Origin: Candidatus Obscuribacteraceae bacterium
Lineage (GTDB): Bacteria; Cyanobacteriota; Vampirovibrionia; Obscuribacterales; Obscuribacteraceae
Direction of reading: 5' to 3'
Assembly (NCBI GenBank): GCA_044229845.1
Contig: JBGASG010000011.1
Span: 79,480 to 143,479, forward strand
Length of the DNA: 64,000 nucleotides
Positions 8,205-38,145 of the stretch are shown piece by piece (positions within the stretch are counted from its first letter, which is position 1; every line of letters begins with the position of its first letter). Both the position numbers and the translations under genes were made by a program. A model generated the notes under the pieces. That model saw only the letters and a program-made list of their open reading frames with translations, did no database searches and was not told where the DNA came from.

Positions 8205-8259
8205 AAGAAACCTCAAGATATCCTGTGAGGAATTTTCGCGCAATAAGCCATTTGTGGCG

Positions 8260-8277
8260 ATCATCTGAAAGGTGGAT
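8260..8277. promoter_or_regulatory. 7-4-7 box ATCATCT-GAAA-GGTGGAT
   Basis: Located in the tnaA/TPR divergent spacer. Confidence 0.65.
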
Positions 8278-8357
8278 TCCTCCAGGTAACCATCCTCGGA
8301 CATACAGAATGAGGTTGATGTTGAGTCGCCGGCGGGTTGGAGATACTTGGAATAAGT

Positions 8358-11140: not shown

Positions 11141-12316
11141 TTAGCACGATTCAATTTCTTTGCTGAAGCTCTCCTGCAAGATTCGTTGCTGTGCCATGGC
11201 CTGCTCGTCGCACTCGTCGTAAAGGCAAAGCGGATCCTGGGCGAGGTAATCGTCATAGCCAGCGAAGGCACGGGCTCTAGATCCTCCACAGATTACTTTG
11301 AATTTGCATCTTCCACACTTGCCCTGCAAAAGCGATGGATCTCTCAGTGCGACAAACAACGGATGGTCCCGGTATATTTCCACTACGGACTGCTTGCGCA
11401 CGTTAGCGCTGCTCACAGGCAAGAATCCGCTGGGATGAACATCGCCGTTGTGCGAAATGAACAGCACGCCACGGCCATCATTAACCGACCGGTAAGCACG
11501 CAGCGCACCCAGTCTCATAGTCGGCGATAAAGTGGCGATGTCCTCTGGAACAGGAGACTCCCTGGAGACATATTCGATCAACACGCGGCGGAAAAATGGA
11601 CCCGCCGTCGCTTTAACATCAAAGGGAGCCACGCAGGCCAACTTGGCCATCTTGATCATAATCTCTTCCGCTTCGACGGGTTCGATTTGCATATCTTCCG
11701 TTGCCCGACCTGTGGGGACCAGGAAGAAAATGCTCCACAGGACGGCTCCCAATCTCTGCACCAAACCGCTCATCTCATCGAATCGATCAACGTTTCCTTT
11801 CCATACCGTAGTGTTGATCTGTATGGGCAAATCGGCCTCTCTGGCAAACCCGATTATCTGCATCGACAGCTCGAAAGAGCCGCTCACTCCTCGCATGCCG
11901 TCATGACAAAGCTGGTCAGGTCCATCCAGGCTGATCGCCATGCGTTCCACTCCCGCATCCTTGATACGTTGCACCACATCCCTGCTGGTCGAAGGCGTGG
12001 CACTGGGGGTGATCGCTACCGGAAAATCTCTGTCTCGAGCAGCTTTGATGATCTCGAACAAATCGTTTCGCTGCACCGGATCGCCACCGGTGAAAACAAT
12101 TAACGGGCGCCCGAATTCCTTCATCTCATCCAGAAGAGAAGTGCATTCGGCAAGCGATAGCTCTGCAGGATCGTGCGCACGAATGGCTTTGGCGCGGCAA
12201 TGCCGACAGGCCAGATTACAGGCGCGGGTAAGTTCCCAGAGCACCAGAAATGGTGCCTTTTCAAAATCGACTCTGTTTTTGGGTGGTCCGGCATTTGATG
12301 CTGCAAGTCTAAGCAT
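11141..12316 (-). CDS. Radical SAM/SPASM protein, TIGR04053 (AhbD/NirJ-related)-like
   Basis: WELTRACNLACRHCRA, PSGFLP and CGRCKFKVICGGSRARA motifs; start 12316 overlaps the narK stop. Confidence 0.8.
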   Translation of the reverse strand: MLRLAASNAGPPKNRVDFEKAPFLVLWELTRACNLACRHCRAKAIRAHDPAELSLAECTSLLDEMKEFGRPLIVFTGGDPVQRNDLFEIIKAARDRDFPVAITPSATPSTSRDVVQRIKDAGVERMAISLDGPDQLCHDGMRGVSGSFELSMQIIGFAREADLPIQINTTVWKGNVDRFDEMSGLVQRLGAVLWSIFFLVPTGRATEDMQIEPVEAEEIMIKMAKLACVAPFDVKATAGPFFRRVLIEYVSRESPVPEDIATLSPTMRLGALRAYRSVNDGRGVLFISHNGDVHPSGFLPVSSANVRKQSVVEIYRDHPLFVALRDPSLLQGKCGRCKFKVICGGSRARAFAGYDDYLAQDPLCLYDECDEQAMAQQRILQESFSKEIESC

Positions 12317-14021
12317 TGCGAAATTCCTTTGTACGCAAGTAGAAGAACCAATTAAGTAGCACGCAGACCAGATAGAATGCTGTGAAGCCGTACAATGCCA
12401 CTTCAGGCGAGCCCAGCTTGATCTGCTCGCCGAATTCCATCGGAATGATGAAGGCACCATATGCTGCTACGGCGGAAGACCAACCTAAGACCGGACCGGC
12501 TTGCTCTTTACTGAACACCACTGCAACTGTTCTGAATGTCGACCCGTTACCGATTCCCGAGGCAAAAAACAGCACCAGGAAAAGAAGGAAGAAAGGCAGA
12601 AAATATTGCTCCGGCGTTGCGGACTGATAGGCCAACTTCATGAAGTAAGCCACACCCAGACCTGCCGCTACCATGAGCACTGAAACAGCCTGTGTTACCT
12701 TGGCGCCGCCGAACTTGTCAGCCAACCATCCACCAATCGGTCTGATCAGAGCACCTATAAAAGGCCCAATCCACGCAAACATAAGGGCGCTAGGGGCATT
12801 CGGGTTAGCGATGTGCGTCCAAGCTCCGTCTGCCCCGGGCAGATGGGAAAAGCCAAAGATCAGTTTGATTGATAAGGGCAACGCTGCCGAGAATCCAATG
12901 AATGATCCGAAGGTCATGGTGTAAATGATGGTCATCACCCATGTGTGATGATTGCCAAAAATCTTGTACTGCCTGTTGAGGTTGTCTTTCAATCCAGGAA
13001 GCATTTTGAGCAAGAATACCGTGGCAAAAATCTCGGCCGGCAAAATTATCCACTTGCTGAGATTGAATCCGGCACCCGATGCAGTGGCTGGAAGCATCAA
13101 CCAGAGCGCCACTGCCGATGTAATGAACCCGATGCTCAACATGAGCGATATTCGAGCAAATGCTGCAGCCGGGCTTCCGAGGCCGGGCGACACCTGCTCG
13201 TCCTTGATATTGTTCATGCCAAACCAGGAAAATATCGCCAACGGTATCAATAAGGCGAGCCATATAAATGAGCCATTAGCTATGAAACTCTCCGCGCCAG
13301 GCGGAATTTTGCCAAACAAAGTACCACTAGCAGACTTGAGGATAAGCGGTGCCTGCCAGGCAAAACCAAAAGTCATCGCCAACGGTACCAACACTTGCAT
13401 GGTCGTTACACCAAAGTTTCCCAGTCCCGCATTCAGACCAAGAGAAAGCCCCTGCATCTTTTTCGGAAAGTAGAAACTGATGTTGGACATTGAGGAAGCA
13501 AAGTTACCGCCGCCAATTCCAGATAGCAATGCCATTGCCTGGAAGACCCATAGTGGAGTAGCGGTGCTCTGCAACGCAATACCTGTCCCAATAACGGGAA
13601 TCGTCAATAGCGCGGTCGTAAACCAGATTGTGTTCCTGCCTCCCGCCAGACGAATAAAAAACGTGCTGGGAATGCGCAGAGTCGCACCAGCCAGCCCGGC
13701 GATTGAAGTTAACGTGAAAAGCTGGTCTTGAGTAAAGGGAAAACCCAGATTGAGCATCTGGACAGTAAGCACCCCCCACGCCATCCATACCGCGAAAGCA
13801 CACAATAAACTCGGGATTGAAAACCAGAGATTGCGAAATGCTATTGCCTTGTCGTGGGCTTGCCACTGAGTGTCGTCCTCTGGGTTCCAATTAGTCAAAT
13901 TGCCCGAGTCGATGCGCGGCGCGCCGGCCTTCCCGGAGTTGTCCAGGCTGAATTCTCTTTGCTCACCACCTGCTTGATCTAGGCTTTCTTGACTCCGATG
14001 TGAGGCTACCATGAGCTTCAT
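12309..14021 (-). CDS. narK: Nitrate/nitrite transporter, NarK2-type
   Basis: W.PED, GATLRIP, GIGGGNFASSM and GIGNGSTF nitrate signatures. Confidence 0.92.
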   Translation of the reverse strand: MKLMVASHRSQESLDQAGGEQREFSLDNSGKAGAPRIDSGNLTNWNPEDDTQWQAHDKAIAFRNLWFSIPSLLCAFAVWMAWGVLTVQMLNLGFPFTQDQLFTLTSIAGLAGATLRIPSTFFIRLAGGRNTIWFTTALLTIPVIGTGIALQSTATPLWVFQAMALLSGIGGGNFASSMSNISFYFPKKMQGLSLGLNAGLGNFGVTTMQVLVPLAMTFGFAWQAPLILKSASGTLFGKIPPGAESFIANGSFIWLALLIPLAIFSWFGMNNIKDEQVSPGLGSPAAAFARISLMLSIGFITSAVALWLMLPATASGAGFNLSKWIILPAEIFATVFLLKMLPGLKDNLNRQYKIFGNHHTWVMTIIYTMTFGSFIGFSAALPLSIKLIFGFSHLPGADGAWTHIANPNAPSALMFAWIGPFIGALIRPIGGWLADKFGGAKVTQAVSVLMVAAGLGVAYFMKLAYQSATPEQYFLPFFLLFLVLFFASGIGNGSTFRTVAVVFSKEQAGPVLGWSSAVAAYGAFIIPMEFGEQIKLGSPEVALYGFTAFYLVCVLLNWFFYLRTKEFRNA

Positions 14022-15946: not shown

Positions 15947-16044
15947 GACAGGGTCTCGGTGGAGATGCAGCAATGGTTAGAGTGGCACAAACAAAGGCCT
16001 TATGGCACACCCTGTAGAACGAACTGACATCGTCCCGAGGATGC

Positions 16045-16227: not shown

Positions 16228-16848
16228 TCACTGCTCGGACGTGCCGCTGTGACTCTGGTCACCTTTGATCTTGCTCTTGCGATAACTCAAGCCCATGCCT
16301 TTCAAGAGATGCACGAAGCCGTAGTCAAGCAATACAATGGCAAGAAATGCCAGACCAACGTGCGGCGCATATTTTTGCAAGTTCTGAAGAAACAATGACC
16401 AGGGGTCGCCGTGATGCGGATTCAAAGCGTCAGTCCCCTGCGCAAACTCCTTGCCATCAGCAATACCGTCCTCGTCCAAATCACTTTGACCAAGTGCGTC
16501 CGCCAGCTTCGCCGGGTCGCTGCGCATTTCGAGAAACTTCTTCCGTCCAACTACTTTGAGTATCTCGTTGCCGAACTTATTGAGAATCGGGCTGTCAACC
16601 TCCGTGCCCGGCTCCATAGCCTTGCGGGCGGCAAGAAGCTTCTTCATCTGCTCAGGTGTTAGGCCGCCCACTTGTCCGGACTCTGTTCCCACCGGTCCAT
16701 TACCGTGGGTGTGGCACATTGCGCAATTAACATTGCGTCCGGACTGCTTCTCAGCATAGCTCTGGAATTCCGGATATGCCACCGCCCCCGGTGCCAGGCA
16801 GAACAGGCACGTGATCGTCAACAGTGTCAGAGACACATTCGTAGCCAC
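16228..16848 (-). CDS. Membrane-anchored monoheme cytochrome c
   Basis: Signal peptide AVA-YP, CAMCH, DLDEDGIADGKE Ca-binding-like motif, C-terminal TM helix. Confidence 0.8.
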   Translation of the reverse strand: MATNVSLTLLTITCLFCLAPGAVAYPEFQSYAEKQSGRNVNCAMCHTHGNGPVGTESGQVGGLTPEQMKKLLAARKAMEPGTEVDSPILNKFGNEILKVVGRKKFLEMRSDPAKLADALGQSDLDEDGIADGKEFAQGTDALNPHHGDPWSLFLQNLQKYAPHVGLAFLAIVLLDYGFVHLLKGMGLSYRKSKIKGDQSHSGTSEQ

Positions 16849-16852: not shown

Positions 16853-17953
16853 TTATCCCCCTTTCACAAGGTGATAGATCTGCTCGCCCCAAATGGTCAT
16901 TACAACCAAATAGACTGTCGCGGCCCAAGTCAATAATTGCAGCGTTCGCCGGCTGGTGCCCTTGAATATCCAGGGAGCCAGAAGCAGAACTGCCACCACC
17001 AGACCCGAGCCGACCAGAATTACCCAGAACGGCAGCATCTCCAGTGGGTAATAGACAAAATAGAAATACCATTCCGGCTTGATGCCGGGCGGGGTTGAGC
17101 CAAGCGCGTTGTACGGTTCCAGAAGCGGGAAGGGCAAAAGGGAATCGAATGGAATGCAGAGACCCAACACAAAGAGGACGAAGAAGATCATGCTCCACAG
17201 CGTAAGATCTTTGAAAAAGAAAATGGGGAAGAACCGCTCAGATTTCTGCAAAGGTCTATCCACTCCCTGACTCATCCCGTGCAGCTGCACTTGCATCAAA
17301 TGAATACCCAGCAAAGCAAACGTCGCCAGAGGCAATAGAACCACGTGCAATGCGTAAAACCTGCCCAGGGTGGATTGGCCGACGGCAGACTCGCCCTGAA
17401 ATGTTTCCCTCAGTATGCGAGGCAACTCGGCCAGTGCCCCAGGCAAATAGGGACCTACTTCTTCGACTGATTGAAGTCCGACCTTAGTGGCATTGACCGC
17501 AATCTGATTCCAGGGCAGTAGATATCCCGTGAAGGCAAAGCCGAATGTCAGAAATAGAAGCAACACACCCATGATCCATGTGATCTCGCGTGGCTTCTCG
17601 AAGGCTTTCATGGCAAATGCAGTGAGCAGGTGCACCACAGCAAAGAAGACCATGCATGATGCAGACCAGGCATGCATGTTGCGAATTAGTGCACCGGCAC
17701 TTACGTGATTTGTAATGAACTCTACAGACAAGTGCGCATCGCTTACCGTGGGCTGGTAATAGAAAAGAAGAAACAGTCCGGTGACGCATTGAATCAGGAA
17801 GAAGAACAGGGTCAGCCCCCCCGTGTAGTAGCCCCAACTCATTTTGTGAACCGGCACTTCCTTCTTCTCGACCATCGAGTGGAAATTCATTTTCTCCACA
17901 GGGAATCTGTCGCCGATGAATTGCACTAATTGCGTCATCACGGTGGCTTTCAC
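16853..17953 (-). CDS. Cytochrome b of a Rieske/cytb complex (b6 + subunit IV-like in one chain)
   Basis: H-x13-H and H-x14-H heme ligands; GYLLPW and PEWY motifs. GTGA overlap with narI and GGAGG SD. Confidence 0.92.
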   Translation of the reverse strand: MKATVMTQLVQFIGDRFPVEKMNFHSMVEKKEVPVHKMSWGYYTGGLTLFFFLIQCVTGLFLLFYYQPTVSDAHLSVEFITNHVSAGALIRNMHAWSASCMVFFAVVHLLTAFAMKAFEKPREITWIMGVLLLFLTFGFAFTGYLLPWNQIAVNATKVGLQSVEEVGPYLPGALAELPRILRETFQGESAVGQSTLGRFYALHVVLLPLATFALLGIHLMQVQLHGMSQGVDRPLQKSERFFPIFFFKDLTLWSMIFFVLFVLGLCIPFDSLLPFPLLEPYNALGSTPPGIKPEWYFYFVYYPLEMLPFWVILVGSGLVVAVLLLAPWIFKGTSRRTLQLLTWAATVYLVVMTIWGEQIYHLVKGG

Positions 17954-19269
17954 GAGACTGCCTCCGCATGCGCTTTTGCAATGTACACGTTGGCCTCGGA
18001 CAGAGCGCTTGCATCCCGTTGTCCGGTTATTTTGCCGGCGCGATTGCGTTCCATCAGCACCGTCCCTTTTGTATCCATGAGTACCCACCCCAACAAGGGC
18101 AGAGGTAGTTTTGCCGGCGCTCCTTCGTTTGGTTTGCCAGTTTCAATGTCGAAAAACGAAACGTGGCACGGGCAGAGAATCTGTCCCTTGGCATTAACAT
18201 CATTGCCTACGGTGCATCCCAAATGCGTGCACTTCGCGGAAAGCAAGATGGGCAAACCGTCTTTGTCCTTGAATGCCATTGCCGGTCGCATACTGTAATC
18301 GGTGAAATACTTTCCTTTTGTGCCGTTCAATTCCGACAACTTAGCAATCAGTATGTAATTGGATTGCTGCCGCTCCAGTTCTAGCTTGCGTTGCTCGGCG
18401 GTTGCCTGGAGCCTCTTCAATCGCAACTCCATCATCTCGGCTTCTTCCTCTTTGGAGAGGCGAGGGCCAAAGAAGAACCTCCAGGTCTTATCCAGGGCTC
18501 CCACTGCCAGCAACGCGCCACCGGCAGCGATACCGATGCCGGCGCGCAAAAAGTGTCGTCTGGACTCCTCCTCGACATAGTGCTCGCGAGCAGCCTCGGC
18601 TCGACGTTCATTCGTCCAGACCACCTTTTGCGGCGGACGGAACAGATACTCTATTGGCACAGCGAACATGTGTATGAGCCGGGAAAATGGAATCGTCAAA
18701 ATTATCAGCCAGGCTCCGACTATGTGAGCCCGAACCAGTATTGGCATGTCTTGTATTACGCTGATGTTGGGGTTGAAGGTGAACAGGCTCCAGATATATG
18801 GTGTCATGCTGCCGGGCGCCCAGGCGGCACCCCATCTGTAATGCAGCGCCATACCCAGCCCGGTAGCCACTTGCGCAAGCAAGAGAAACAGCACCACAAA
18901 GTCCATTGTGGTAGAAACGGCTTGCAGGCGCGAACTCATTATTCGTCGAACGATAAGCACCAGTAGCCCAACGATGCACCCGACTGCCAGCGCGATGCCG
19001 GATATCTCGACTGCGTGCAGGATGGGTTGCACGGACATAGCCGCCTTCCAGGGACCGGGTGCAACAAGCACCACGATATGGACGAGCAAAATCAGGATGA
19101 TGCCGATATGCCAGGGCACCGACCCCCACACCAGTGCTTTGCTCTCCAGAAACTGCGAGGACAAGGCGGTGTAAGTCAGACCTTGCTTGCGAATGCGGTA
19201 GATCGATCCAAATATGCAGGCCGTCAGCGCTATATAGGGCAGAACGACAAACAACAGGATGTCCAACAT
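17950..19269 (-). CDS. narI: NarI (gamma subunit) fused to a Tat-motif TM helix and Rieske 2Fe-2S domain
   Basis: SSQFLE, H-x9-H and H-x17-H (PFSRLIH), then SRRHFL + TM helix, CTHLGC and CPCH. Confidence 0.9.
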   Translation of the reverse strand: MLDILLFVVLPYIALTACIFGSIYRIRKQGLTYTALSSQFLESKALVWGSVPWHIGIILILLVHIVVLVAPGPWKAAMSVQPILHAVEISGIALAVGCIVGLLVLIVRRIMSSRLQAVSTTMDFVVLFLLLAQVATGLGMALHYRWGAAWAPGSMTPYIWSLFTFNPNISVIQDMPILVRAHIVGAWLIILTIPFSRLIHMFAVPIEYLFRPPQKVVWTNERRAEAAREHYVEEESRRHFLRAGIGIAAGGALLAVGALDKTWRFFFGPRLSKEEEAEMMELRLKRLQATAEQRKLELERQQSNYILIAKLSELNGTKGKYFTDYSMRPAMAFKDKDGLPILLSAKCTHLGCTVGNDVNAKGQILCPCHVSFFDIETGKPNEGAPAKLPLPLLGWVLMDTKGTVLMERNRAGKITGQRDASALSEANVYIAKAHAEAVS

Positions 19270-19279: not shown

Positions 19280-19813
19280 TCAGCTACCGGCACTCATAAC
19301 TTCCAAAAGACTGGCAAAGAGCTTGCCATACGGGTTGTTGGTTGCATTTTTCAGATTGTCTGCCATTTCGGCCACTGGTTTTTGCAGACAGAACTCAACC
19401 AGCTCGTCGACTTCTTCAGTCGTGGCATATGTCATGTATCGCAACATCACAGCCAGATGGTCCGGCATTTCATTGCCGCGGTCGAAGCCGGTTTCATCGT
19501 ATCTTTGGATCAGCCCGGCCATTAAGTTGCCGCGCTCGTAGTTTTCATCACCATAAATGTGTGCGCTTATGTATGGGCTGCAAATTGGTGCCATATCGAA
19601 GGTGCGGGTGAATACCTCTTCGAGCTCGCTGAGAGGCATTGCATCGATGCGCTCGCAGAACTCAGCCAGATAGCGCCCCGCTCTGGAATAGTCCGCACTT
19701 ATGGAAACTTGCCTCTGGCGGGCCAGTTGCGAGTAACCTTCATTCGGATACTCGAGCAAGGCTGCGTATTCAGAAAGGGCCGGCGCTTTAGGTTTTTTCA
19801 ACGGAATGATCAT
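19280..19813 (-). CDS. narJ: Nitrate reductase molybdenum cofactor assembly chaperone
   Basis: LLEYP, FTRTFD and EMPDHL motifs; lies between narH and narI. Confidence 0.88.
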   Translation of the reverse strand: MIIPLKKPKAPALSEYAALLEYPNEGYSQLARQRQVSISADYSRAGRYLAEFCERIDAMPLSELEEVFTRTFDMAPICSPYISAHIYGDENYERGNLMAGLIQRYDETGFDRGNEMPDHLAVMLRYMTYATTEEVDELVEFCLQKPVAEMADNLKNATNNPYGKLFASLLEVMSAGS

Positions 19814-19814
19814 A

Positions 19815-21338
19815 TTATGGACCTCTCTCCGGTGGCTGGTTGAATCCAAGCCCGCATGAGCCTTTACATAACTCGGGACTGCACGAAGGTTGCCCGGCCA
19901 TCGCTTGACCGGTCATCGCTTCTTCTCGCTGAATTGGCGCCAGTACAAAGCGATCGTAAATCGTTGGTAGAGCAGTAAGCGAATAAATCTCCTCAGCTTC
20001 TGAAGGAGTGACATTACCTTCGCGCATGAACTTGCTCATGGATACGAGATCAAGATCTCCTATCTCCTGCGTCCGTTTGTAATAACGCACCGCCATCAGT
20101 TTCTTCATTACGTATTCGATGTGCTCTACATTGCCGGCGCTAAAGAGTTTCGCCAGGTATTTGATCGGCAATCGCGACTTTTCCAGGCTGCTGAAAAACT
20201 GATCGACCGGATTCTCGTAATGCCCGTTGTCGAATTTACCCATCACAGGCAAAAGTGGTGGCACATAGAAAAGCATCGGCATGGTCCGATACTCTACGTG
20301 TAAAGGCAGTGCAAGTTTCCATTCCTTGACGTACTTATATATAGGCGACTTTTGAGCGGCATCGATAAATTCGTCGCTGATCCCGTTTTTGCGAGCCTCC
20401 TGCATGATCTTGGGATCGAAGGGGTCGCAGATGACACTGCGCTGCGCCTCGACGAGGGCATGATCCGGTACGCTCATGGCTTCAGCCACACGCTCCGCGT
20501 CATACAGCAGAACCCCCAGATAACGGATGCGGCCCACACATGACTGGAAGCAGTTGGGAATCTGTCCTGTCTCCAGCTTTGGATAGCAAAGAATGCACTT
20601 CTCCGATTTGCCCGTTTTCCAGTTGTAATAAATTTTCTTATACGGGCAAGCGGAGATGCACGCTCTCCAGCCCTTGCACATGTCCTGATTGATCAGGACA
20701 ATTCCGTCTTCGCCGCGCTTATAAAGAGCCCCAGACGGGCAGGATGCGACACAGCTGGGATTTGCGCAATGATTGCAAATGCGGGGCAAATACATAAATG
20801 AGATACGCTCTACCTCGAAGAGTTGCTCGCGCTCTTCGTCACTGAGACCTTCGAGATTGATATCGTTTTCGGCGTAGACAGGGGAGCCAGAAAGATCATC
20901 ATCCCAGTTCGGACCAGCTTCGATGTCCATTGGCTCACCGGTGATTTGCGACACGGCAATTGCTGTGGGCTGATCATCACCTTCTGGTGCATCGAACAAG
21001 TCCTGGTATTTGTACGTCCAGGGCTCATAATAATCCTCGAGCCCCGGTTGGTTCGGGTTGTAGAACAGTTTGAGAAACGCATCCAGCTTGCCTTGTGAGC
21101 GCAGCTCAAGGCTTCGCTTGCCGTTCTTGCCGTTGACTTTCCAGCCGCCTTTGTAGTGCTCCTGATCTTCCCACAAAGTGGGATAGCCGGTGCCGGGTTT
21201 GGTTTCGACATTGTTCCACCACATATACTCAGCGCCCGGTCTATCCGTCCAGACGTTTTTGCAAGCCACGCTGCACGTATGGCAGCCGATACATTTGTCG
21301 AGGTGAAACACCATTGAGACTTGTGCGCGAATATCCAT
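19815..21338 (-). CDS. narH: Nitrate reductase / nitrite oxidoreductase beta subunit
   Basis: LDKCIGCHTCSVACK, PRICNHC.NPSCVASCP, CKGWRACISACPY and KCILCYP motifs. Confidence 0.95.
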   Translation of the reverse strand: MDIRAQVSMVFHLDKCIGCHTCSVACKNVWTDRPGAEYMWWNNVETKPGTGYPTLWEDQEHYKGGWKVNGKNGKRSLELRSQGKLDAFLKLFYNPNQPGLEDYYEPWTYKYQDLFDAPEGDDQPTAIAVSQITGEPMDIEAGPNWDDDLSGSPVYAENDINLEGLSDEEREQLFEVERISFMYLPRICNHCANPSCVASCPSGALYKRGEDGIVLINQDMCKGWRACISACPYKKIYYNWKTGKSEKCILCYPKLETGQIPNCFQSCVGRIRYLGVLLYDAERVAEAMSVPDHALVEAQRSVICDPFDPKIMQEARKNGISDEFIDAAQKSPIYKYVKEWKLALPLHVEYRTMPMLFYVPPLLPVMGKFDNGHYENPVDQFFSSLEKSRLPIKYLAKLFSAGNVEHIEYVMKKLMAVRYYKRTQEIGDLDLVSMSKFMREGNVTPSEAEEIYSLTALPTIYDRFVLAPIQREEAMTGQAMAGQPSCSPELCKGSCGLGFNQPPERGP

Positions 21339-21346: not shown

Positions 21347-24300
21347 CTAGAAGTTCGGCTTGTCGAGTTTTTTCACAACGACGAAAGTGTCACGATTTAC
21401 GCCAGTAGGTCCCCAGTAGTTGAACCCATAGCTGAATTGCGCATAGCCGCCGATCATGAATAGCGGCTTCAGTCGTGCCCGCGTAAGACTGTTGTGTCCG
21501 CCGGCTCGCCTGTTTTTTCGTTCCGGAGATTTCGGTACTGTCAACGTGCGCTCGGGCGAGTGATAAATGAAAGCGGTGCCGCGCGGGATACGAGCACTGA
21601 CGATAGCGCGGGTGCAGACCACGCCATGATCGTTGAAAATTTCTACCCAGTCGTTATCTTCGACACCAACGAGATCGGCATCCTTGTCGTTCAACCAGAC
21701 CGGATAAATTCCTCTGCTCAGAGTTTTCATCCGTAAGGTGTCGCCGAAGGTTGAGTGAATATGCCACTTGCCGTGTGGTGTCAGGTAATTGAGCACCAAC
21801 GAGCCACCTTTCACCTCAGTTTTCTGCAGGTCACGCGTGACACTCAAGTCGGCACGTGGTTTGTATGTCGGCAGATGCTCGCCGTAAGCGATGTAGACTT
21901 CATGATCCAGATACAGATGCTGCCGGCCGGTAAGCGTGCGCCAGGGAATCAATTCTTCGACGTTCTGGCAATAAGCGGAGTAGGTTCTGTTTTCAGTCGT
22001 TATGCCAGTCCAGTAGGGTGATGTCAGCACACGACGCGGCTGCGCCCTCAAATCAGCGAATGTATAGCGGGTAGCGCGCGTGTCTCTGGCCAGATGGCTA
22101 TGATCGATACCTGTCTTATGACTTTCAGATTCATATGCGCGAAAAGCAAGTTCGCCGTTTGTCTCCGCTGCGAAGTTCAAAATCACCTCGCAAACATTGA
22201 GACCTTCCTTTAGTGACGGATAGCTTTTGCCTGACCATGTTTGCGACGGTTGAGTCTCGATGTATTTGTCATACTCATCTTCGATATCATAGTGAGTTCC
22301 GTGTACCGCCAATCCATTGTTGCGGGCGACCGGCCCGAATGAGATGAACTTGTTATAGAGATTGACGTAATCGCGCTCCACTACTTTCATATTGGGCATG
22401 GTCTTGCCCGGAATTGCTTCGCATTCACCCTTGAGCCAGTCTTTCACAGTCGGTTGCGCGATCTCGCCGGGAGTGTCATGAAGCAAAGGCGACACCACCA
22501 GGTCTTTGACCGGTTCGTTCAAATAGCGTTTTGCCAACTCAGAGGTAGATTTCGCAATTCCTTTGAATATATCCCAATCAGTCTTGCTTTCCCAACATGG
22601 TGGCACCGCCGGTTGCAGAGGATGAATAAAGGAATGCATGTCCGTGGTGTTCAGGTCATGCTTTTCATAGTGGGTAGCTGCAGGCAAGACCAGGTCTGAA
22701 TAGAGAGCAGATGAATCCATGCGGAAGTTAAGGTCTACCACCAGATCCATCTTGCCCAACTCGATCTTGTCGTGCCAGGTAATCTCTTTGACCTCATCAC
22801 CGGCCACTTCCTCGGCTATGGTGTTATTGTGCGTTCCCAAGTAATGTTTGAGAAAATACTCGTGTCCCTTTGCTGATGAGAGCAGCGCATTTCCCCGCCA
22901 TATGTACCAGACGCGGGGCCACGACTCCGGCACGTCAGGATCTTCCATGGAGAATTTCAATGAGCGATCTTTTAAAGACTTAACTGCATACTCAATGATT
23001 TGCGAGTCGGTTTTTGCTCCACTGGCTACTGCTTCTTCGACCACTTTGAGATTGCTTCGGTTGAATTGTGGAAAGCACGGCAGCCAGCCATTTCGTACAG
23101 CCAACACTTGTTTGTCAGCTGTATGTCCTGAACTCATTGGATGCTTGTCGTCCGCTACCGCGCACATCTCATTAAATGAATTGTCATAGCGCCACTGATC
23201 CGAATGTATGTAATGGAAAGACGGCGTATTTTGCAGACGCGGCGGCCCGTACCAATCTGTGCCGAAAGCAATGGGTGCCCACGAGGCCTGTGGCACCAGC
23301 TTTTCTTGTCCAACGTAGTGGTTTAAGCCGCCACCACTTACCCCGACACTGCCGGTGAGGATGAGCGCATTGATTGCCGCTCTGTAAATGAGGTTGTTGT
23401 GATACCAGTGGTTGGCACCGGCACCAATAATTATCGAGCACTTGCCTTTACTCGCTTCTGCGGTGCGCCCCCACTCGCGAGCGAAGTTGATCACATTTAC
23501 TGCTTTGATGCCAGTAAACTTCTCCTGCCACGCGGGGGTATAAGGAAGCTCTTCGTCTTCGTAAGTCTCCGGATATGCGCCTCCCATGCCGCGGTCAACA
23601 CCATATTGAGCAAGCAGAAGCTCCATGACGGTCGTCACAAGCACTTCCCCGGTGGCGGTTGTGACGCGGCGAACTGCCACACCACGATTGAAAAGTTTGT
23701 CGGCAGTGCCTTCCGAGAAGTCGTTTAACTTCACACTCACCACGCCATCATGACGCCCGACGAGGGTGAGGAGTGGATCTACCTTGGCGTTGGTCAAAGC
23801 ATTCTCCAACTTCAGATTCCATTCGCCTTTTTTGGATTGCCAGCGATGCCCAATCGTTCCTCTGAGCATTGCCGGCTGATCGGTGAGCGCGTCCCAAACG
23901 AACATTTTCCACTCGGCGTTCTCTTCCTTCGCTGTGCTTTCGACATCACTGGCCCTCAGCAAACGCCCGGCGCTGTATGTGCCATCGGCATTTTTGTCGA
24001 GACAGACAAGAAACGGAGCATCGCTGTATTGCTTGGCATAATTGACGAAGTAAGGCACCTGCCGATCGAGGTAAAACTCTTTAAGCAGAACATGCGTAAC
24101 TGCCATCCAGAAAGCGCCGTCCTGTCCCTGATTGATTGGAACCCACTCGTCAGCAATTTTCGAAGCCATCGAGAAGTCTGGCGAGAAGACCACAACCTTG
24201 GCGCCACGGTGCCGTCCTTCAACTAAGAAGTGCGCGTCGGGTGTTCTTGTCATGAGCACGTTGGAGCCTACAACGGCAACAAATTTGGAGTGAAACCAAT

Positions 24301-24979
24301 CCGCACTTTCGCCGACATCAGTTTGCTCACCCCAGATCTCAGGCGACGCCGGCGGCAAGTCGCAGTACCAGTCATAAAAAGACATACTGACGCCACCTAG
24401 CAGTTGCAGGAAGCGTGAGCCTGCTGCGTAGCTCACCATCGACATGGCTGGAATCGGAGAAAAGCCGATAATGCGATCTGAACCGTGTCTCTTGATTGTC
24501 GAGATGTTGGCTGCTGCCATCATCTCATTAGCTTCGTCCCAGGCGACACGGCGGAAGCCGCCTTTGCCTCGCGCGCTCTGGTATCGTTTGCGCTTGTCAG
24601 GGTTCTGGACTATCGACTCCCATGCCGCAACCGGATCATTGGGAAACTGAGCTTTGGCTTCGCGCCAGAGATCGATCAAGGCGCCCCGAGCGTAAGGGTA
24701 CTTCACTCTCAGCGGGCTGTAGAGGTACCAGCTGCAGGAGATACCGCGCTGGCAGCCTCTGGGCTCGTGGGGAGGAATGTCTTTACTGATACTGGGATAA
24801 TCCAGCGCTTGCAGTTCCCATGTAACAATGCCACTTTTCACATAGACGTTCCAACTGCACGAGCCGGTGCAATTGACACCATGAGTGGAGCGTACGATGT
24901 TGTCGTATTGCCAGCGATTTCTATAGAAGTCTTCCCATTGCCGCTGTTTCGGTGCAAAAATGTCTTTGATCCAAGCCAT
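21347..24979 (-). CDS. narG: Nitrate reductase / nitrite oxidoreductase alpha subunit (no Tat signal)
   Basis: [20 protein letters not shown] and [10 protein letters not shown] motifs; 1210 aa. Confidence 0.95.
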
Positions 24980-24985: not shown

Positions 24986-25855
24986 TTATCTCCTGGTTAA
25001 CTTGTCGCGGGCCGGTTTCTTCCGTGTGCGGTAGCCCACTGCCACGGCCGCAATCAGAATTGCAGCCCCGATAAACCCCATCATTTCTACAGCTCCAGAA
25101 ACTGGTTTATTGGACCCAACTCCTTTAAGAGTCGACATGTATGCTGCCAGGTCAACGGCTTCGTCGTGAGTAACCGGGCTGTCTTTGTAAGCATTTTTCA
25201 TGACCCGGTAGGGTGTCTTTTCCGCTGCCACCACCAGCGCTACCATATTGAATTTCGTGGCGACGGCACCGAGGTCTGGACCCAACCCTCCCTTTGTCTC
25301 TCCCGTCACGCTGTGACACGAGACGCATGCCATGCCCTGGTTTTTCAATGAGCGCTTTCCGGAGAACAATTCTTCGCCTGCAACCACAGATCCCGGCTGT
25401 TCGGTTTTTACCGGCGGCTCAGTTTCGACGTGCTTGGTAGTACCGGCGGCAGTGCTTGAGGCATCCGAACTGGTGGCTGTGCCGGTTGCGGTAGTGTCAG
25501 ACGATGGTTTGGTCTCAGCAGACGTCGTGCTCGTCGTTGGGTTCAGTGCGGCTGCGTCCGATCCGCCGCCTTTGAGATATTTGACCAGTGTGGTAATCTC
25601 GGCCGCTGTCATAGGACCGGCCTGACTTTGCATCCGGGTCACATTACCTTCGATCTGAGATTCCGCCTGCAGTTTCGCGCCGCCCAGATCTGGACCGACG
25701 AGTGGACCTTTCCCTATCGTGTGGCAGCTGGCGCACTTTTCGGTAAACAACTGCGAACCATCCTGGGCAGCGGCGTTGATCGGTACCGCCAGCGATATCG
25801 CTACAAGCACCCGAGATGCGATCTTTGCTGTCGTCCTCAAGCGCATTCTTGTCAT
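24986..25855 (-). CDS. Membrane-anchored diheme cytochrome c (NarC-like)
   Basis: Signal peptide, CASCH and CVSCH separated by a Thr/Ser linker, C-terminal TM helix; immediately upstream of narG. Confidence 0.82.
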   Translation of the reverse strand: MTRMRLRTTAKIASRVLVAISLAVPINAAAQDGSQLFTEKCASCHTIGKGPLVGPDLGGAKLQAESQIEGNVTRMQSQAGPMTAAEITTLVKYLKGGGSDAAALNPTTSTTSAETKPSSDTTATGTATSSDASSTAAGTTKHVETEPPVKTEQPGSVVAGEELFSGKRSLKNQGMACVSCHSVTGETKGGLGPDLGAVATKFNMVALVVAAEKTPYRVMKNAYKDSPVTHDEAVDLAAYMSTLKGVGSNKPVSGAVEMMGFIGAAILIAAVAVGYRTRKKPARDKLTRR

Positions 25856-25905
25856 CCGGCTTCCTTCCGCGACCACCTTCAATAAAATCTGCGCTGCTCG
25901 AAGCT

Positions 25906-27387
25906 TTAGTCGCTGCATTGATTATGAAGTGAACGAATGGTCCCGATCCTTCGGCGGATGCGCAGTTTGTTCAAAACTGCATCGGCAGCTCGCCTGGCAG
26001 ATGCAAGACAATCAGGAATCCCGATGCCGCTGTATGCGTTACCAGCCAGGTACAAATCATCACAGCCGCCTAACTCTGCCTGCAAATCTTGCATGCGTTC
26101 CAGGTGCCCGACTTCGTACTGCGGCAGCGCATTGTCGTGCCTGGTCACCCAGACCTGGAGCGGCGGTCTTTCGACACCAACATAGTCTTCAAGGTCTTTC
26201 AGCAAGGCAGCAACGACGTCCTGGTTACTGGCGCCATCCAAAAGGCTCTGTCCTTCTCTGCTGAGAGACACGCGCAACAAGACTTTATCCTCCTCCGTCC
26301 TGCCACCGAATTTGATGCTTGTGAATGTACACGCACTCGTAAAGCGCCCCTCTTTTGGAGGAACAACGAACCCAAAGCCGTCCAGAGCATGTCGGATGTC
26401 TTTTCGGTAAAAAAGAAGATTGACGATAACAGTCGGTGCGTACGCGATCTGCCTGAGTTTGTGCCCGAGGGAAGCATTTATAGGGCAGAGGAGTTGTCCG
26501 GCTATGTTGGCTGGAGTTGCCACCACCACACTGTGAGCTCCTATTCGCTTACCGCTGCACAGGCAGATTTCATACCCGTACTCTGGCAGCGTGCTGTGTA
26601 CGATGTGATCTACGGGTGTATTGAGACAAACTGAACCGGCAGGCAGGTGGCGTAAGAGCCCATCGATCAATACTTGCATTCCACGGTCGAAACTTGCAAA
26701 TAGCCCATAGCGTGATCCTGCAACAGCTGAATTCCGACCATCCTTCTTTTGTAGTTTCTGCTTCCACAATCCGCGAATAATGCTTCCGCACTCAGCTTCG
26801 TACTGCACCATTTGCGGTACCGTACATTTGGAACTCAAAAGACGAGCGTCCCCACCATAAATTCCTGCGATCATCGGCTCGGCTAGCTGCGTGAAAGCCT
26901 CCTGCCCGAGACGTCGCTGCACAAAATCGGCTAAACTCTCGTCCACTGCATCGCCTTTGCGAGGAATAACGAGATCCATAGCCATGCGAATTTTACAGGG
27001 CACACTGACCACACCGGTAGTGAGCCAGGGCCGGAACTTCGTAGGAGCAAACAAGACGAATCCATCCGGCATGGGATGCAGTTTGCTCCGGCGAGCTATA
27101 AAGGTGCGTCGATGCTTTTCGTTGGTGGATATTACACTGTGCGTCAGTCCCAACTCCCGCACCAGATCGACAACCTGGGGCTTCGCCGTTAGAAATGCTT
27201 CGGGTCCTTTATCTATCACGGCACCGGCAGCGACCTCGGTCGCTATCACGCCTCCAGCGCGACCACTGCCTTCCAGGACGATAACCTCCACCTGTGCGCA
27301 ATCGCTGCCGCGATGAATGAAATATGCTGCCGCAAGGCCAGATATCCCCGCTCCGATCACGACAATTCGAGTGCGACTCTCAACCAT
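25906..27387 (-). CDS. hemG: Proto-/coproporphyrinogen oxidase (HemY-type FAD enzyme)
   Basis: GAGISGL, DESLADFVQRRLG, PQYEVGH and GIGIPDC motifs. Confidence 0.9.
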   Translation of the reverse strand: MVESRTRIVVIGAGISGLAAAYFIHRGSDCAQVEVIVLEGSGRAGGVIATEVAAGAVIDKGPEAFLTAKPQVVDLVRELGLTHSVISTNEKHRRTFIARRSKLHPMPDGFVLFAPTKFRPWLTTGVVSVPCKIRMAMDLVIPRKGDAVDESLADFVQRRLGQEAFTQLAEPMIAGIYGGDARLLSSKCTVPQMVQYEAECGSIIRGLWKQKLQKKDGRNSAVAGSRYGLFASFDRGMQVLIDGLLRHLPAGSVCLNTPVDHIVHSTLPEYGYEICLCSGKRIGAHSVVVATPANIAGQLLCPINASLGHKLRQIAYAPTVIVNLLFYRKDIRHALDGFGFVVPPKEGRFTSACTFTSIKFGGRTEEDKVLLRVSLSREGQSLLDGASNQDVVAALLKDLEDYVGVERPPLQVWVTRHDNALPQYEVGHLERMQDLQAELGGCDDLYLAGNAYSGIGIPDCLASARRAADAVLNKLRIRRRIGTIRSLHNQCSD

Positions 27388-27596: not shown

Positions 27597-29138
27597 ATGA
27601 ATAAATCCAGCGACTCACAGCCGCCATCCGTCCTGGCAAACAACAACACCAGAGCTGTGCAAGTCCTGGCGGCCAATACGGCTTCCTTTGCTGTTTGCTT
27701 CGCCTGCTGGATGCTGTATGGCGTTTTGATCACTTTTCTAGTCGACAACAACGTCTTCAAATGGAACCCATCGCAGATGGGATGGTTGATCGGCATTCCC
27801 GTGTTAACGGGCTCCATCATGCGCTTGCCGGTCGGAGTACTCACCGACAGATATGGCGGTAGAGCGGTCTATGCCGTCTTGATGCTAATTTCGGCCGCGT
27901 CCATGTTCATGGTCGGGTTCTGCAATTCCTTTGTTGAATTTCTTGTTGCCGGACTTTGCTTCGGACTGAGCGGAGCGGCCTTCGCCGTAGGAGTTGCGTA
28001 CACGTCGATCTGGTTCCCTAAAGAAAGACAGGGCTTTGCTTTGGGCATATTTGGAGCAGGCAACGCCGGCGCCGCTATCACCAGCTTCGGTGCACCACAG
28101 CTTTTGTCTTGGCTAACGCACAACATGCAGAACATAGAAGGGTGGCGACACTTACCTCGATTGTACGCCGCTGCATTAGTCGTAATGACAGTCATATTCT
28201 GGTTGCTGACTTCGACGAAGAAAGTGCAAGGTAAAGAAGGCATGACCATCATGCAACAGCTTGCACCATTGAAAAACGTACGGGTTTGGAGATTCGGACT
28301 CTACTACTTCCTTGTCTTCGGCGGATTCGTTGCTCTCTCACAATGGTTGATTCCGTATTACTTGAACGTCTACGGCATGAGTTTGGCTCTGGCCGGTTTC
28401 ATGGCTGCGCTTTTTAGTTTGCCCTCGGGAGTGATTCGCGCTCTCGGCGGCTGGATGTCCGACAAGTGGGGAGCGCGCAACGTAATGTATGTGGTACTGG
28501 TATCGTGTTTGGTTGCCTGCGCACTTTTGTGTGTACCGCGCATGGACATTCAGTCACCAGGTCCAGGAGTGATGGCCATGCAAAAAGGTATAGTGACTGC
28601 AATCACCGCCGATTGCGTCCAAGTTGACGACAAACGATATGCAATCAAACCCAGGCATCCAGAAAATGTTGTCACCATCGCCGATAAGAACGACAGTATG
28701 CTGATTTGGCCAACCCTGGTGTCATGGCAAGAACCGATGGTGAAGGTCGGTGATACAGTTCAGCGCAAGCAGGTTTTGGCTCGTGGAGTGACGCACATCT
28801 TTTTCCAGGCAAATGTCTGGATATTCACCGTCCTTGTATTTATCATCGGTGTCATGACCGGCATTGGCAAAGCCGCGGTTTACAGGCACATTCCCGACTA
28901 CTTCCCGCACGATGTCGGGGTCGTGGGCGGTATCGTCGGAGTCATCGGTGGGCTGGGAGGCTTCGTCGGACCGATACTCTTTGGTTATTTCTTGGACGTC
29001 AGTGGAATCTGGACCACCTGTTGGGTGTTTTTCGCCATCCTCAGCGCGGTCTGCCTGACCTGGATGCATTGGACTATTTCACACATGATGAATGAGCACG
29101 CACCGGAACTGGCTCGCCAGATGGCAACGCGAATCTGA
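27597..29138 (+). CDS. narK: Nitrate/nitrite transporter, NarK1-type, with an inserted soluble domain
   Basis: GIPVLTGSIMRLP, GIFGAGNAG and GIGKAAVY motifs. Confidence 0.9.
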   Translation: MNKSSDSQPPSVLANNNTRAVQVLAANTASFAVCFACWMLYGVLITFLVDNNVFKWNPSQMGWLIGIPVLTGSIMRLPVGVLTDRYGGRAVYAVLMLISAASMFMVGFCNSFVEFLVAGLCFGLSGAAFAVGVAYTSIWFPKERQGFALGIFGAGNAGAAITSFGAPQLLSWLTHNMQNIEGWRHLPRLYAAALVVMTVIFWLLTSTKKVQGKEGMTIMQQLAPLKNVRVWRFGLYYFLVFGGFVALSQWLIPYYLNVYGMSLALAGFMAALFSLPSGVIRALGGWMSDKWGARNVMYVVLVSCLVACALLCVPRMDIQSPGPGVMAMQKGIVTAITADCVQVDDKRYAIKPRHPENVVTIADKNDSMLIWPTLVSWQEPMVKVGDTVQRKQVLARGVTHIFFQANVWIFTVLVFIIGVMTGIGKAAVYRHIPDYFPHDVGVVGGIVGVIGGLGGFVGPILFGYFLDVSGIWTTCWVFFAILSAVCLTWMHWTISHMMNEHAPELARQMATRI

Positions 29139-29785: not shown

Positions 29786-29839
29786 TCTCGTCTGCTAGCA
29801 TGCGTGTCACCCTGGAGTGTGCAACCGATGGAGGTTTCG

Positions 29840-32086
29840 ATGTCCTGGAGATGGAAGCTAGCAGTGCTGTTTGTGTTAATAGCGGGTTTTTCGACCTTAA
29901 TTTTTATGGGACATGAAACCAGTAATCAAGCACCACCAATTCCAGATCAGGTCGTCACTACCGAAGGAAAGGTCATTTTTACCGGCAAAGACATCCTTGA
30001 GGGACAGGGAGTCTTTCAAAAGTATGGGCTCATGGACGTGGGCTCCTTTTTTGGTCACGGTGCGTATAACGGTCCTGACTTCTCCGCTGATTACCTCCAC
30101 CGTGAAGCCGTGATCTCGTTAGATCGAGTCGCTCAGAGCCGGTTCGGCAAACCATTTGCACAACTGGAGGCTGGCGCCCAAGGTGATCTGACCAACAGCC
30201 TCAAACACGAGTTCAAAGAAAACAGATACGATCCGAAATCGAAAACGCTTACCTGGACGGATAACCAGGTGGAAGCATACCGGCAACTCCAACAGTACTA
30301 TGATACCGACTTTGGTGCTGGTCGCAAGTTACCATTGCCCGTCGACTACATCAAAGACTCCCAAGAGCGCCTACAACTCAGCCGTTTTTTCTCCTGGGGG
30401 TCCTGGGTGTGTTCAACAAATCGCCCGGGCAAGGACTACACCTACACAAATAACTGGCCTCCGGAACAACTTGTCGGCAACGGACCGAACTGGCATATCT
30501 TCTTCTGGAGCGCTATGAGTCTTGTGATGCTCATTGGTGGTATCGGTCTGACTCAGTTCTTGCTGAGCGCATTTCCGGGATTGGGCTGGATGCCTGATGG
30601 CGGCGGCATGACTGACAATGTCAAAGAGTACAAACCATATCGTTCTCAGACCTCGCTATATCCCTATTTTGCTGTTGTCGTGCTGCTGTTTTTGTTTCAG
30701 ACTGCATTTGGTGTCGTAACAGCGCACTACATTGTGGAGCAAGGCTTTTACGGCTTCGATATCCGCAACATCTTCCCATACAGCATTACGAGAAGCTGGC
30801 ATTTGCAGCTTTCCATTTTTTGGATTGCTACGGCCTGGCTTGCGGCAGGTATGTTCATGGCGCCAATGCTTTCAAAGCACGAGCCTAAAGCGCAACACTG
30901 GCTAGTCAAAATTCTGTTTGTCGCCATTTTGATTGTTGCAGTCGGGAGCATCGGCGGCGAATGGCTTGGTGTCAAAAATATGCTTGGCAATCTTTGGTTC
31001 TGGTTCGGGCATCAAGGTTGGGAATATCTAGAGCTAGGACGCTTCTGGCAAGCCCTTCTGACCATAGGAATGGTGCTCTGGGCCGTCATTGTTTTTCGCA
31101 GCATTAACCCTTTGCTGAAAGGAAAGGATCTCGGAAGTCTCCCCTACATGCTGCTCTACGGCGTCATGGCAATTCCGTTGTTCTTTAGCTTCGGCATGAT
31201 GTACCATCCCGGCACGAATTTTGCAGTTGCCGATTTTTGGCGCTGGTGGGTCGTTCACTTGTGGGTGGAAGGCATCTTTGAACTGTATACAACAATCATT
31301 GTTGCTTATTTCTTCTGCAGTCTCGGCATGGTTTCGGAAAAATCCGCTCTATCTGTCATTTACGTTGACATCATTTTGTATCTGGGCAGCGGCATTGTTG
31401 GAATCGGTCACCACTACTACTGGACGGCACAGCCCGCAATCAACATGGCATTGGGTTCAATGATTTCAGCCTGGGAGGTGGTACCGCTGACGTTACTAAC
31501 GATGGAAGCGTGGAAATTTGTAGAACTAGCCAAAGTCAAAGGTTCGATAAAAAACTTCTCTCACTATTGGGCGATGATGTTCCTGATAGCAGTAGGATTT
31601 TGGAACTTTCTCGGGGCAGGTGTGTTCGGCTTCTTAGTCAACACGCCGATCGTCAGCTACTACGAGCACGCGACTTATCTGACCTCAAACCACGGACACG
31701 CGGCTCTCATGGGTGTGTACGGAATGCTCGCGGTAGCAGCCGTTTTATTTTGCACACGCTACCTGATGATTGAAGATGCTTGGAGCAACCGATTGGCAGC
31801 GCTTTCTTTCTGGGGCTTGAACATCGGACTCTTGCTCATGTTAGTGCTCAACATATTCCCGGCTGGCGTAATCCAAATGGTGGAAAGCTATCAAAACGGC
31901 TTCTGGTCTGCTCGCAGCCCAGAGTTCGTCCAGTCGCACCTGTTTCAGGTGTTTACCTGGCTACGTGTCGTTGGTGATTTAACTTTTGTCGTAGTGGGCG
32001 TATTCCCGCTAGTTTTCCTAGTTCTCAGAGGCATATTTCATTTGCGACCAGCGAGGCAGCCCGAAAGTCTTCCGCAAACTACCTAG
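29840..32086 (+). CDS. norB: Quinol-dependent nitric oxide reductase (qNOR)
   Basis: GHGAY.GPD, YTNNWP, RSWHLQ, WWVVHLWVEG.FE, GHHYYW, EVVPL and HGHAAL motifs; GGAGG SD. Confidence 0.95.
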   Translation: MSWRWKLAVLFVLIAGFSTLIFMGHETSNQAPPIPDQVVTTEGKVIFTGKDILEGQGVFQKYGLMDVGSFFGHGAYNGPDFSADYLHREAVISLDRVAQSRFGKPFAQLEAGAQGDLTNSLKHEFKENRYDPKSKTLTWTDNQVEAYRQLQQYYDTDFGAGRKLPLPVDYIKDSQERLQLSRFFSWGSWVCSTNRPGKDYTYTNNWPPEQLVGNGPNWHIFFWSAMSLVMLIGGIGLTQFLLSAFPGLGWMPDGGGMTDNVKEYKPYRSQTSLYPYFAVVVLLFLFQTAFGVVTAHYIVEQGFYGFDIRNIFPYSITRSWHLQLSIFWIATAWLAAGMFMAPMLSKHEPKAQHWLVKILFVAILIVAVGSIGGEWLGVKNMLGNLWFWFGHQGWEYLELGRFWQALLTIGMVLWAVIVFRSINPLLKGKDLGSLPYMLLYGVMAIPLFFSFGMMYHPGTNFAVADFWRWWVVHLWVEGIFELYTTIIVAYFFCSLGMVSEKSALSVIYVDIILYLGSGIVGIGHHYYWTAQPAINMALGSMISAWEVVPLTLLTMEAWKFVELAKVKGSIKNFSHYWAMMFLIAVGFWNFLGAGVFGFLVNTPIVSYYEHATYLTSNHGHAALMGVYGMLAVAAVLFCTRYLMIEDAWSNRLAALSFWGLNIGLLLMLVLNIFPAGVIQMVESYQNGFWSARSPEFVQSHLFQVFTWLRVVGDLTFVVVGVFPLVFLVLRGIFHLRPARQPESLPQTT

Positions 32087-37551: not shown

Positions 37552-37554
37552 GAT

Positions 37555-38136: not shown

Positions 38137-38145
38137 GGCAGCTCC

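Follow-up and report, generated by a model that had tools for sequence, protein, structure and literature searches.

A NarI-Rieske fusion gene in an Obscuribacteraceae genome and its possible role in coupling a Q cycle to nitrate reduction

In characterised bacteria, electrons on their way to the cytoplasmic nitrate reductase bypass the Rieske/cytochrome b complex (PMC3509893). A gene of a Candidatus Obscuribacteraceae bacterium joins a subunit of each of these two systems in one polypeptide, i.e. the nitrate reductase membrane anchor NarI and a Rieske iron-sulfur protein. It lies in a stretch of 64,000 nt (contig JBGASG010000011.1, positions 79,480 to 143,479), which is called the window in the following, and it raises the questions of how such a protein would enter the membrane and from where its NarI part would receive electrons.

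The gene is a single stop-free frame (Table 1). A first-pass annotation of the window had described an intact NarI with all four haem-binding histidines that runs in frame into an SRRHFL motif, followed by a transmembrane helix, a charged helical spacer of about 30 residues and a Rieske domain. Each of these features was found at exactly the place given for it, within a frame of 439 aa. The Pfam family Nitrate_red_gam matches residues 4-218 with 204 bits (cut-off 22.9), and the family Rieske matches residues 307-386 with 32 bits (cut-off 20.3). His54, 64, 182, and 200 align with the haem ligands His56, 66, 187, and 205 of Escherichia coli NarI, respectively. An AlphaFold model (mean predicted local distance difference test score 84.8, predicted template modelling score 0.50) is confident inside the domains, not between them. 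Besides the NarI helices, it shows one long helix (221-267), a further helix (273-302), and a beta-rich head, and its best structural match is chain C of NarGHI, followed by Rieske proteins. The fusion of a NarI anchor to a Rieske subunit is real.

To describe the family, relatives were taken from two sources. A protein search, in which matches were not selected by the twin-arginine motif, gave 553 matches, of which 120 listed clusters were used. In a genome collection, at least 517 stretches encode a relative, and the best 80 (44-62% identity) were kept. Because these 80 loci had been found by Rieske-box patterns, the conservation of the boxes was taken from the 120 protein matches. The combination of both domains, a check that the first-pass annotation had proposed, was found at full length in all 120 of them, as were the four haem ligands of NarI and all six residues of the Rieske boxes and the disulfide pair. 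One frame spans the NarI-Rieske junction in 80 of the 80 genome loci, and the exact protein is present on 29 contigs. The second check proposed, with reads across the junction, gave the same picture: single contigs crossed it without a difference in four of four DNA runs (from four studies, each of which was flagged as possibly the origin of the window DNA), and in two of four RNA-library runs, which may contain DNA. According to the record titles, carriers include Obscuribacterales, other Melainabacteria, Verrucomicrobiota, Planctomycetota, Hydrogenedentota, Sumerlaeota, Acidobacteriota, Bacteroidota, Omnitrophota, Myxococcota, Nitrospirota, and Gemmatimonadota. Of 41 related genomes, 12 have a full-length match. 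A class-wide sample of 151 genomes contained a full NarI in 21, which lies inside frames of 425-467 residues in 18 and in shorter frames in three. Many small genomes of this sample have a weak NarI-like match (positions about 80-210) inside frames of about 690 aa.

The same two domains have also been joined elsewhere. A profile search found NarI-Rieske proteins with other Rieske types, and a query of three of them led to 55 listed full-length clusters. Their Rieske domains match the window family with 22-40 bits. In contrast, scores of 136-163 bits are reached against free Rieske proteins, which are different ones for the window family and for the larger second family. In a NarI tree, a branch with a support of 98 separates the NarI domains of the window family from those of the other fusion families (a quick tree of 62 chosen rows with an unsure root). 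These comparisons suggest that the NarI-Rieske fusion is likely to have had at least three origins. The proteins P0302, P0271, P0257, and P0407-P0459 represent two or more of the other families, with different Rieske types and a twin-arginine helix of their own; in P0302, both proximal haem histidines are lost. Further combinations were seen in P0254, P0268, P0278, P0349, and P0277, i.e. cytochrome c with this Rieske family, cytochrome c with NarI, NarI with a multihaem cytochrome c, and NarI with an MFS (major facilitator superfamily) transporter.

The fusion gene is part of a fixed cassette of seven genes separated by gaps of a few bases, in the order dihaem cytochrome c, narG, narH, narJ, narI::Rieske, cytochrome b, and monohaem cytochrome c. 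For each gene, conservation was counted in those of the 80 genome loci that are long enough to hold it. The values are 53/53 for the dihaem cytochrome c, 55/55 for narG, 65/65 for narH, 73/73 for narJ, 73/73 for cytochrome b, and 71/71 for the monohaem cytochrome c. The four nar genes score above their NCBIfam cut-offs. NarG lacks a Tat (twin-arginine translocation) signal and is therefore of the cytoplasm-facing type; the closest named NarG among plasmids is that of Thermus, with 62% identity. The dihaem cytochrome c is homologous to NarC of Thermus, with 28% identity over 218 aligned columns. For the cytochrome b, the nearest solved structure is cytochrome b6; the CxGG motif for haem ci is lacking. 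PEWY is present in 75 of 77 loci (of the other two, one is truncated and one divergent), and the four histidine ligands are kept wherever these are covered, with the exception of one locus. The gene of a conserved CxxCH protein, the monohaem cytochrome c, comes next in 71 of 71 loci. This protein belongs to no family and shows no conserved distal methionine or histidine across loci. A wide fold search matched only its C-terminal helix, and an Atlas search gave its own cluster plus weak temptin-like leads. It also has an invariant DxDxD (Asp123, 125, 127), which may bind calcium.

The cassette thus consists of a Thermus-type narCGHJI operon as its left half and a Rieske-cytochrome b-cytochrome c operon as its right half. 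The right half is also found alone, and there the Rieske protein carries the same twin-arginine stretch as an N-terminal signal and the same charged helical spacer. Such unfused modules lie near the root of a cytochrome b tree (made by a quick method with a long outgroup and eight unfused rows, all near relatives), a placement that is not read as pointing to a donor or to an order of events. Unfused operons of this kind are found at six loci (L096-L100 and L105), four of which (L096, L097, L099, and L100) have genes for an exported protein of about 430-500 aa and for a dihaem cytochrome c close by. The first-pass annotation had proposed a covalent staple between a Rieske/cytochrome b complex and nitrate reductase. 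This applies to the Rieske subunit, which is tied to NarI, but cytochrome b and NarGH are chains of their own.

We propose, with a confidence slightly above even, that a cytoplasm-facing nitrate reductase is supplied with electrons, by way of cytochromes c, from a Q-cycle Rieske/cytochrome b complex, with a fusion protein inserted by the Sec (general secretory) and Tat systems. Menaquinol would give up its electrons at the PEWY site of cytochrome b: one would return to quinone via haems bL and bH, and the other would pass from the Rieske cluster to the monohaem cytochrome c, the NarC-like dihaem cytochrome c, haems bD and bP of NarI, NarH, NarG, and finally nitrate. The fusion would tie the Rieske/cytochrome b complex to NarGHI, so that NarI takes its electrons there and not directly from quinol. 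Because charge would cross the membrane in each of the two branches, four charges per nitrate would be translocated rather than two. A more far-reaching version is held more tentatively, at somewhat less than an even chance. In it, complex III and nitrate reductase are hard-wired, NarI no longer oxidises quinol and is a wire fed by cytochrome c, four charges are moved per nitrate, and the fusion by way of an internal Tat signal arose at least three times, with this version having spread over about a dozen phyla. In Thermus, NarC binds NarI in two-hybrid tests (review PMC7694296), and Q-cycle coupling to nitrate has been argued to be feasible, on the grounds that a span of 505 mV from menaquinol to nitrate is enough for 4 H+ instead of 2 (Falke 2021, PMC7931247). 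The transmembrane wire of NarI is intact, because its four histidine ligands are kept throughout the 120 proteins.

If NarI no longer received electrons from quinol, its quinol site might be altered. Lys86 of E. coli NarI, which we take from titles of PDB entries to be a quinol-site residue, aligns without gaps with Ile83 of the fusion in two alignments. A basic residue at this position is found in none of the 120 fused NarI domains, 119 of which have Val, Ile, Leu, Ala, Phe, or Thr. For comparison, Arg is present in 100 of the 120 nearest shorter NarI matches and in Thermus NarI; the 20 exceptions include truncated fusions and a sister group. A NarI-only query of metagenomes gave 80 loci. Twelve of these, i.e. 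11 fused loci and one truncated fused locus, are all without Arg83, whereas 64 of the 68 stand-alone loci have Arg83 and no matching Rieske/cytochrome b genes alongside (one further locus is ambiguous and one has a gap). Leu84 and Glu88 were also considered as the change at Lys86 and were rejected, since they are common to stand-alone NarI (119/120 and 120/120, respectively) and the register points to position 83. No other NarI was found in the genome, which is 88% complete.

The nature of the Rieske cluster and of the quinone bears on the energetics. From a Phe at the usual Tyr position, the first-pass annotation had deduced a low-potential, menaquinol-type cluster. The Phe is indeed invariant (Phe373, 120/120), but the deduction is weak, because Ser371 is invariant alongside it (120/120), which predicts a middle potential. 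The Gly of the low-potential class (Gly-x-Phe/Tyr, with loss of the Ser hydrogen bond) was accordingly absent from these proteins. For an actinobacterial Rieske protein, however, a lower potential has reportedly been measured. Rieske proteins with Ser-x-Phe are classed as "Mid+", with about +260 mV, and those with Gly-x-Phe as low (Kao and Hunte, PMC4122944). In the genome, two matches to the futalosine pathway were above the cut-off, while MenB and the ubiquinone hydroxylases were below it. Menaquinone is therefore the likely electron donor, and the futalosine genes support this better than the Rieske signature.

Several observations weigh against the proposed path. The haems of E. coli NarI have potentials of about +20 and +120 mV, far below that of the Rieske cluster, so that the NarI haems would need retuning. 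A Rieske cluster near +260 mV would leave only about 170 mV to nitrate (+430 mV, PMC7931247), close to the proton motive force. The monohaem cytochrome c has no conserved distal ligand, and, because relatives carry the Rieske-cytochrome b-cytochrome c module without nar genes, this module can serve other acceptors. Thermus NarC has been proposed to carry electrons away from NarI (PMC7694296). Concerning the quinol site, two loci (L111 and L171) encode a complete stand-alone NarI without Arg83 and no Rieske/cytochrome b complex nearby, and about a dozen further stand-alone NarI proteins lack Arg83. In the second NarI-Rieske family, Arg83 is kept in 35 of 49 proteins, and His64, the other quinol-site residue, is kept in the window family. 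In addition, the Arg83 counts are not independent, because the loss is essentially one evolutionary event. With these exceptions, the loss of Arg83 fits an end of direct quinol oxidation by NarI.

Much of this would suit a different arrangement, in which NarI itself still oxidises quinol, two quinol oxidases work in parallel, the fusion only fixes stoichiometry and co-assembly, and the Rieske/cytochrome b branch delivers to other periplasmic acceptors. The retention of His64 and of all haems, the Arg-less stand-alone NarI proteins, the Arg83 mostly kept in other fusion families, and the outward branch proposed for Thermus NarC (PMC7694296) all speak for it. So do the unfused Rieske-cytochrome b-cytochrome c operons, which occur in genomes in which the query found no NarI. 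Nevertheless, we regard this arrangement as rather unlikely. The cassette has no periplasmic nitrite or N2O reductase, NirK is below the cut-off in the 88% complete genome (NirS, NrfA, and NosZ were not searched for), and the neighbouring nitric oxide reductase is of the quinol-using type. For oxygen respiration, the genome has other Rieske/cytochrome b loci, and the basic residue at position 83 is gone throughout the fused family.

Less probable still is that the enzyme is a cytoplasm-facing nitrite oxidoreductase (NXR), from which electrons leave via NarI and NarC in part to an oxidase and in part, through a reversed Rieske/cytochrome b complex, uphill to quinone. One Melainabacteria locus, with petB and narK behind it, has been labelled NXR (Matheus Carnevali 2019); this nearest mention in the literature found probably concerns an operon of the kind described here, but does not include the fusion. 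A narC-like cluster has been described for the NXR of Nitrobacter (review PMC7694296), and a lost quinol site together with a middle-potential Rieske cluster would suit this direction. However, the cytochrome b has PEWY and not APWY, which has been linked to reverse operation (Kao and Hunte, PMC4122944), and Obscuribacter has been predicted to respire nitrate. Among plasmids, the closest named NarG belongs to a nitrate reductase, that of Thermus, and the neighbours are NarK, a qNor-type nitric oxide reductase, Rrf2 regulators, and haem synthesis genes. No RuBisCO was found in the 88% complete genome. A search for citrate lyase, which matched none of the control genomes, gives no information on this point.

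How could the Rieske head reach the periplasm? E. coli NarI has five helices and an outside N terminus. Because the NarI domain of the fusion likewise has five helices and is taken to be N-out, the twin arginine is predicted to be cytoplasmic. The motif is highly conserved among the 120 protein matches, with Arg in 117 and Lys in three at position 237, Arg in 120 at position 238, and Phe in 119 at position 240. The Arg pair is present in 79 of the 80 genome loci, whereas the linker before it varies freely. In dual Sec/Tat proteins, release from Sec has been tied to a final helix that is weakly hydrophobic, to basic residues that follow this helix, and to a loop (Tooke 2017, PMC5449189). In the fusion, helix 6 is the least hydrophobic of the six in 58 of 78 rows and the second least in 19 (mean Kyte-Doolittle value 1.61 versus 1.93-2.56, a scale that differs from the delta-G scale of Tooke 2017). 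Residues 260-272 contain one to four Lys or Arg in 81 of 81 rows, although acidic residues are also common there, and the loop has 33-37 residues, compared with at least eight expected for dual Sec/Tat proteins. As in these, a single helix after the motif is followed by the cofactor domain, and TatC is encoded in the genome. An internal start ahead of the motif was considered and is unlikely, as a Met between residues 205 and 236 occurs in only 13 of 80 loci.

These features make it highly likely that insertion is dual, with Sec for five helices and Tat for the sixth helix and the folded Rieske head. The first-pass proposal of a dual-targeted family holds in so far as a conserved fused family has the sequence hallmarks of dual Sec/Tat insertion and is encoded beside cytochrome b and nar genes. 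Its parity argument requires a correction: an odd number of Sec helices does not apply to the actinobacterial Rieske protein, which has two (an even number, N-in) before its Tat helix, but fits N-out proteins such as the four-helix (long) YkuE family (Tooke 2017, PMC5449189), and the logic holds for NarI. Alternatively, the Rieske head could stay in the cytoplasm or leave it without Tat, the Arg pair being merely a topology signal. NarI does have Arg pairs at further cytoplasmic ends of its helices, among them the invariant R108-R109. Yet this possibility is very improbable, given that the full RRxF, the weakly hydrophobic helix, and the subsequent basic residues are conserved together and that unfused members of the Rieske family carry this stretch as their N-terminal signal. 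The disulfide pair and the PEWY partner suit a periplasmic head. Moreover, in the other fusion families (P0257 included), 55 of 56 proteins match an RR pattern, and all linkers displayed have RR before a hydrophobic stretch. Finally, an assembly or frameshift artefact that fused two genes is next to impossible: every carrier found is a metagenome assembly, but the fusion is conserved, at identities as low as 44%, in a large number of independent assemblies, and its linker is nearly constant in length (33-37 residues), which refutes this reading.

The class IV of dual Sec/Tat proteins (the actinobacterial Rieske protein Sco2149/QcrA, Sco3746, polyferredoxin, and the long YkuE; PMC5449189, PMC7317946, PMC13673990) likewise has Sec-type helices, an internal twin arginine, a final helix of weak hydrophobicity that is followed by basic residues, and a cofactor domain at the C terminus. 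In Sco3746 and polyferredoxin, too, two redox subunits that otherwise occur as separate proteins are fused (PMC5449189). In contrast to these proteins, narI::Rieske has five Sec helices, an outside N terminus, and six helices in total, its Sec part is a complete haem-bearing NarI, and the subunits that it unites come from two different respiratory complexes. The word "NarI" does not occur in the main texts of the three papers.

Several nitrate reductase systems resemble the cassette in part. Thermus thermophilus NarCGHI (PMC7694296) has the same order narC-narG-narH-narJ-narI, a dihaem NarC homologue, and a NarI of the same Leu84/Glu88 clade, but this NarI is unfused and has Arg at the Lys86 position, and the operon lacks Rieske and cytochrome b genes; its NarC has been proposed to replace complex III (PMC7694296). 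In haloarchaea, Rieske and cytochrome b genes are also clustered with narGH, and a Q cycle feeding nitrate reduction has been proposed (Baymann 2012, PMC3509893). That Nar is outward-facing, with a low-potential Gly/Phe Rieske protein and no cytochrome c in the cluster. In the cassette, NarG is without a Tat signal, NarI exists and is fused, and there are genes for two c-type cytochromes. The closest functional analogue is the spore Nar1 of Streptomyces coelicolor with its bcc-aa3 supercomplex, for which a cytoplasmic NarGHI fed by bcc and 4 H+ per nitrate have been proposed (Falke 2021, PMC7931247). There, the link consists of genetic dependence and co-purification of separately encoded complexes, in contrast to one operon and one polypeptide here. 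Compared with E. coli NarGHI (PDB 1q16, 1y5i), which has the same NarI fold and four histidine ligands, the fusion has Ile83 at the Lys86 position and a C-terminal extension of 220 residues, and the cassette has extra cytochromes.

No description of a NarI-Rieske fusion was found in the literature searched, the coverage of which was incomplete, and passages of PMC11327836 and PMC11052009 contain nothing on it. The architecture is real, widespread, apparently undescribed, and made of known parts. As the whole proposed chain is encoded by seven genes with one covalent link, Q-cycle-coupled nitrate reduction becomes directly testable. If the proposal is correct, the energy yield per nitrate would be about doubled in organisms of sludge, groundwater, and drinking-water samples, and "narI" annotations in such organisms would need a different reading. 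A six-helix, N-out family with repeated independent origin would join the short list of dual Sec/Tat proteins.

Table 1. Positions of the fusion gene, its parts, and neighbouring genes in the window (ORF, open reading frame)
Feature	Position	Strand	Remarks
narI::Rieske fusion gene	17950..19269	-	single stop-free frame, 439 aa
NarI domain, residues 4-218	18616..19260	-	five helices; haem ligands His54/64/182/200
Ile83 codon of NarI domain	19021-19023	-	E. coli Lys86 position
Internal twin-arginine motif SRRHFL, residues 236-241	18547..18564	-	
Sixth helix, residues 241-259	18493..18549	-	Gly/Ala-rich, weakly hydrophobic; predicted Tat-inserted anchor
Charged helical spacer, residues 273-302	18364..18453	-	30 aa, 15 charged
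Rieske [2Fe-2S] domain	17974..18357	-	ligands Cys347/His349/Cys366/His369; disulfide pair Cys352/Cys368; signature Ser371-x-Phe373
Rieske box CTHLGC	18231-18214	-	
Rieske box CPCHVSFF	18174-18151	-	
Cytochrome b of Rieske/cytochrome b complex, single chain	16853..17953	-	His94/108/203/218; PEWY at 293-296; 4-base overlap with fusion stop
Monohaem c-type cytochrome	16228..16848	-	signal peptide, one CxxCH, C-terminal helix; no Pfam family
narJ chaperone	19280..19849	-	TIGR00684 above cut-off; longest ORF, true start may be later
narH	19815..21338	-	TIGR01660 above cut-off
narG	21347..24979	-	TIGR01580, 1548 bits; no N-terminal Tat signal
NarC-like dihaem cytochrome c	24986..25918	-	longest ORF; two invariant Met ligands, C-terminal anchor
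NarK-like nitrate/nitrite transporter	12309..14021	-	flanking; position varies among loci
Second NarK-like transporter	27597..29138	+	flanking
qNor-type nitric oxide reductase	29804..32086	+	flanking; not conserved in cassette

Further genes for Rieske/cytochrome b complexes are present outside of the cassette. A second operon in the window (35108-39363, minus strand) encodes a 405-aa membrane protein, a Tat-type Rieske protein (Gly-x-Tyr), a cytochrome b with PEWY, and a protein similar to cytochrome bd subunit I that is fused to a cytochrome c domain. In its make-up, it resembles the bd-like complex III/IV that has been reported from this group. Two more cytochrome b genes lie near each other elsewhere in the genome (C22:358488-361535; L194 and L195).

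Some other features of the window were also seen. An exported protein of 591 aa without a Pfam match (14198-15973, minus strand) is encoded beside narK in many Obscuribacterales loci. Judged from the translations, an apparent hybrid-cluster protein gene at 39411-46065 is in two pieces, with transposase-like genes and a reverse-transcriptase frame between them, and a second reverse-transcriptase frame is found at 32188-33882. Two tandem frames at 5317-8786 (minus strand), recognised by eye, are similar to tryptophanase/tyrosine phenol-lyase.

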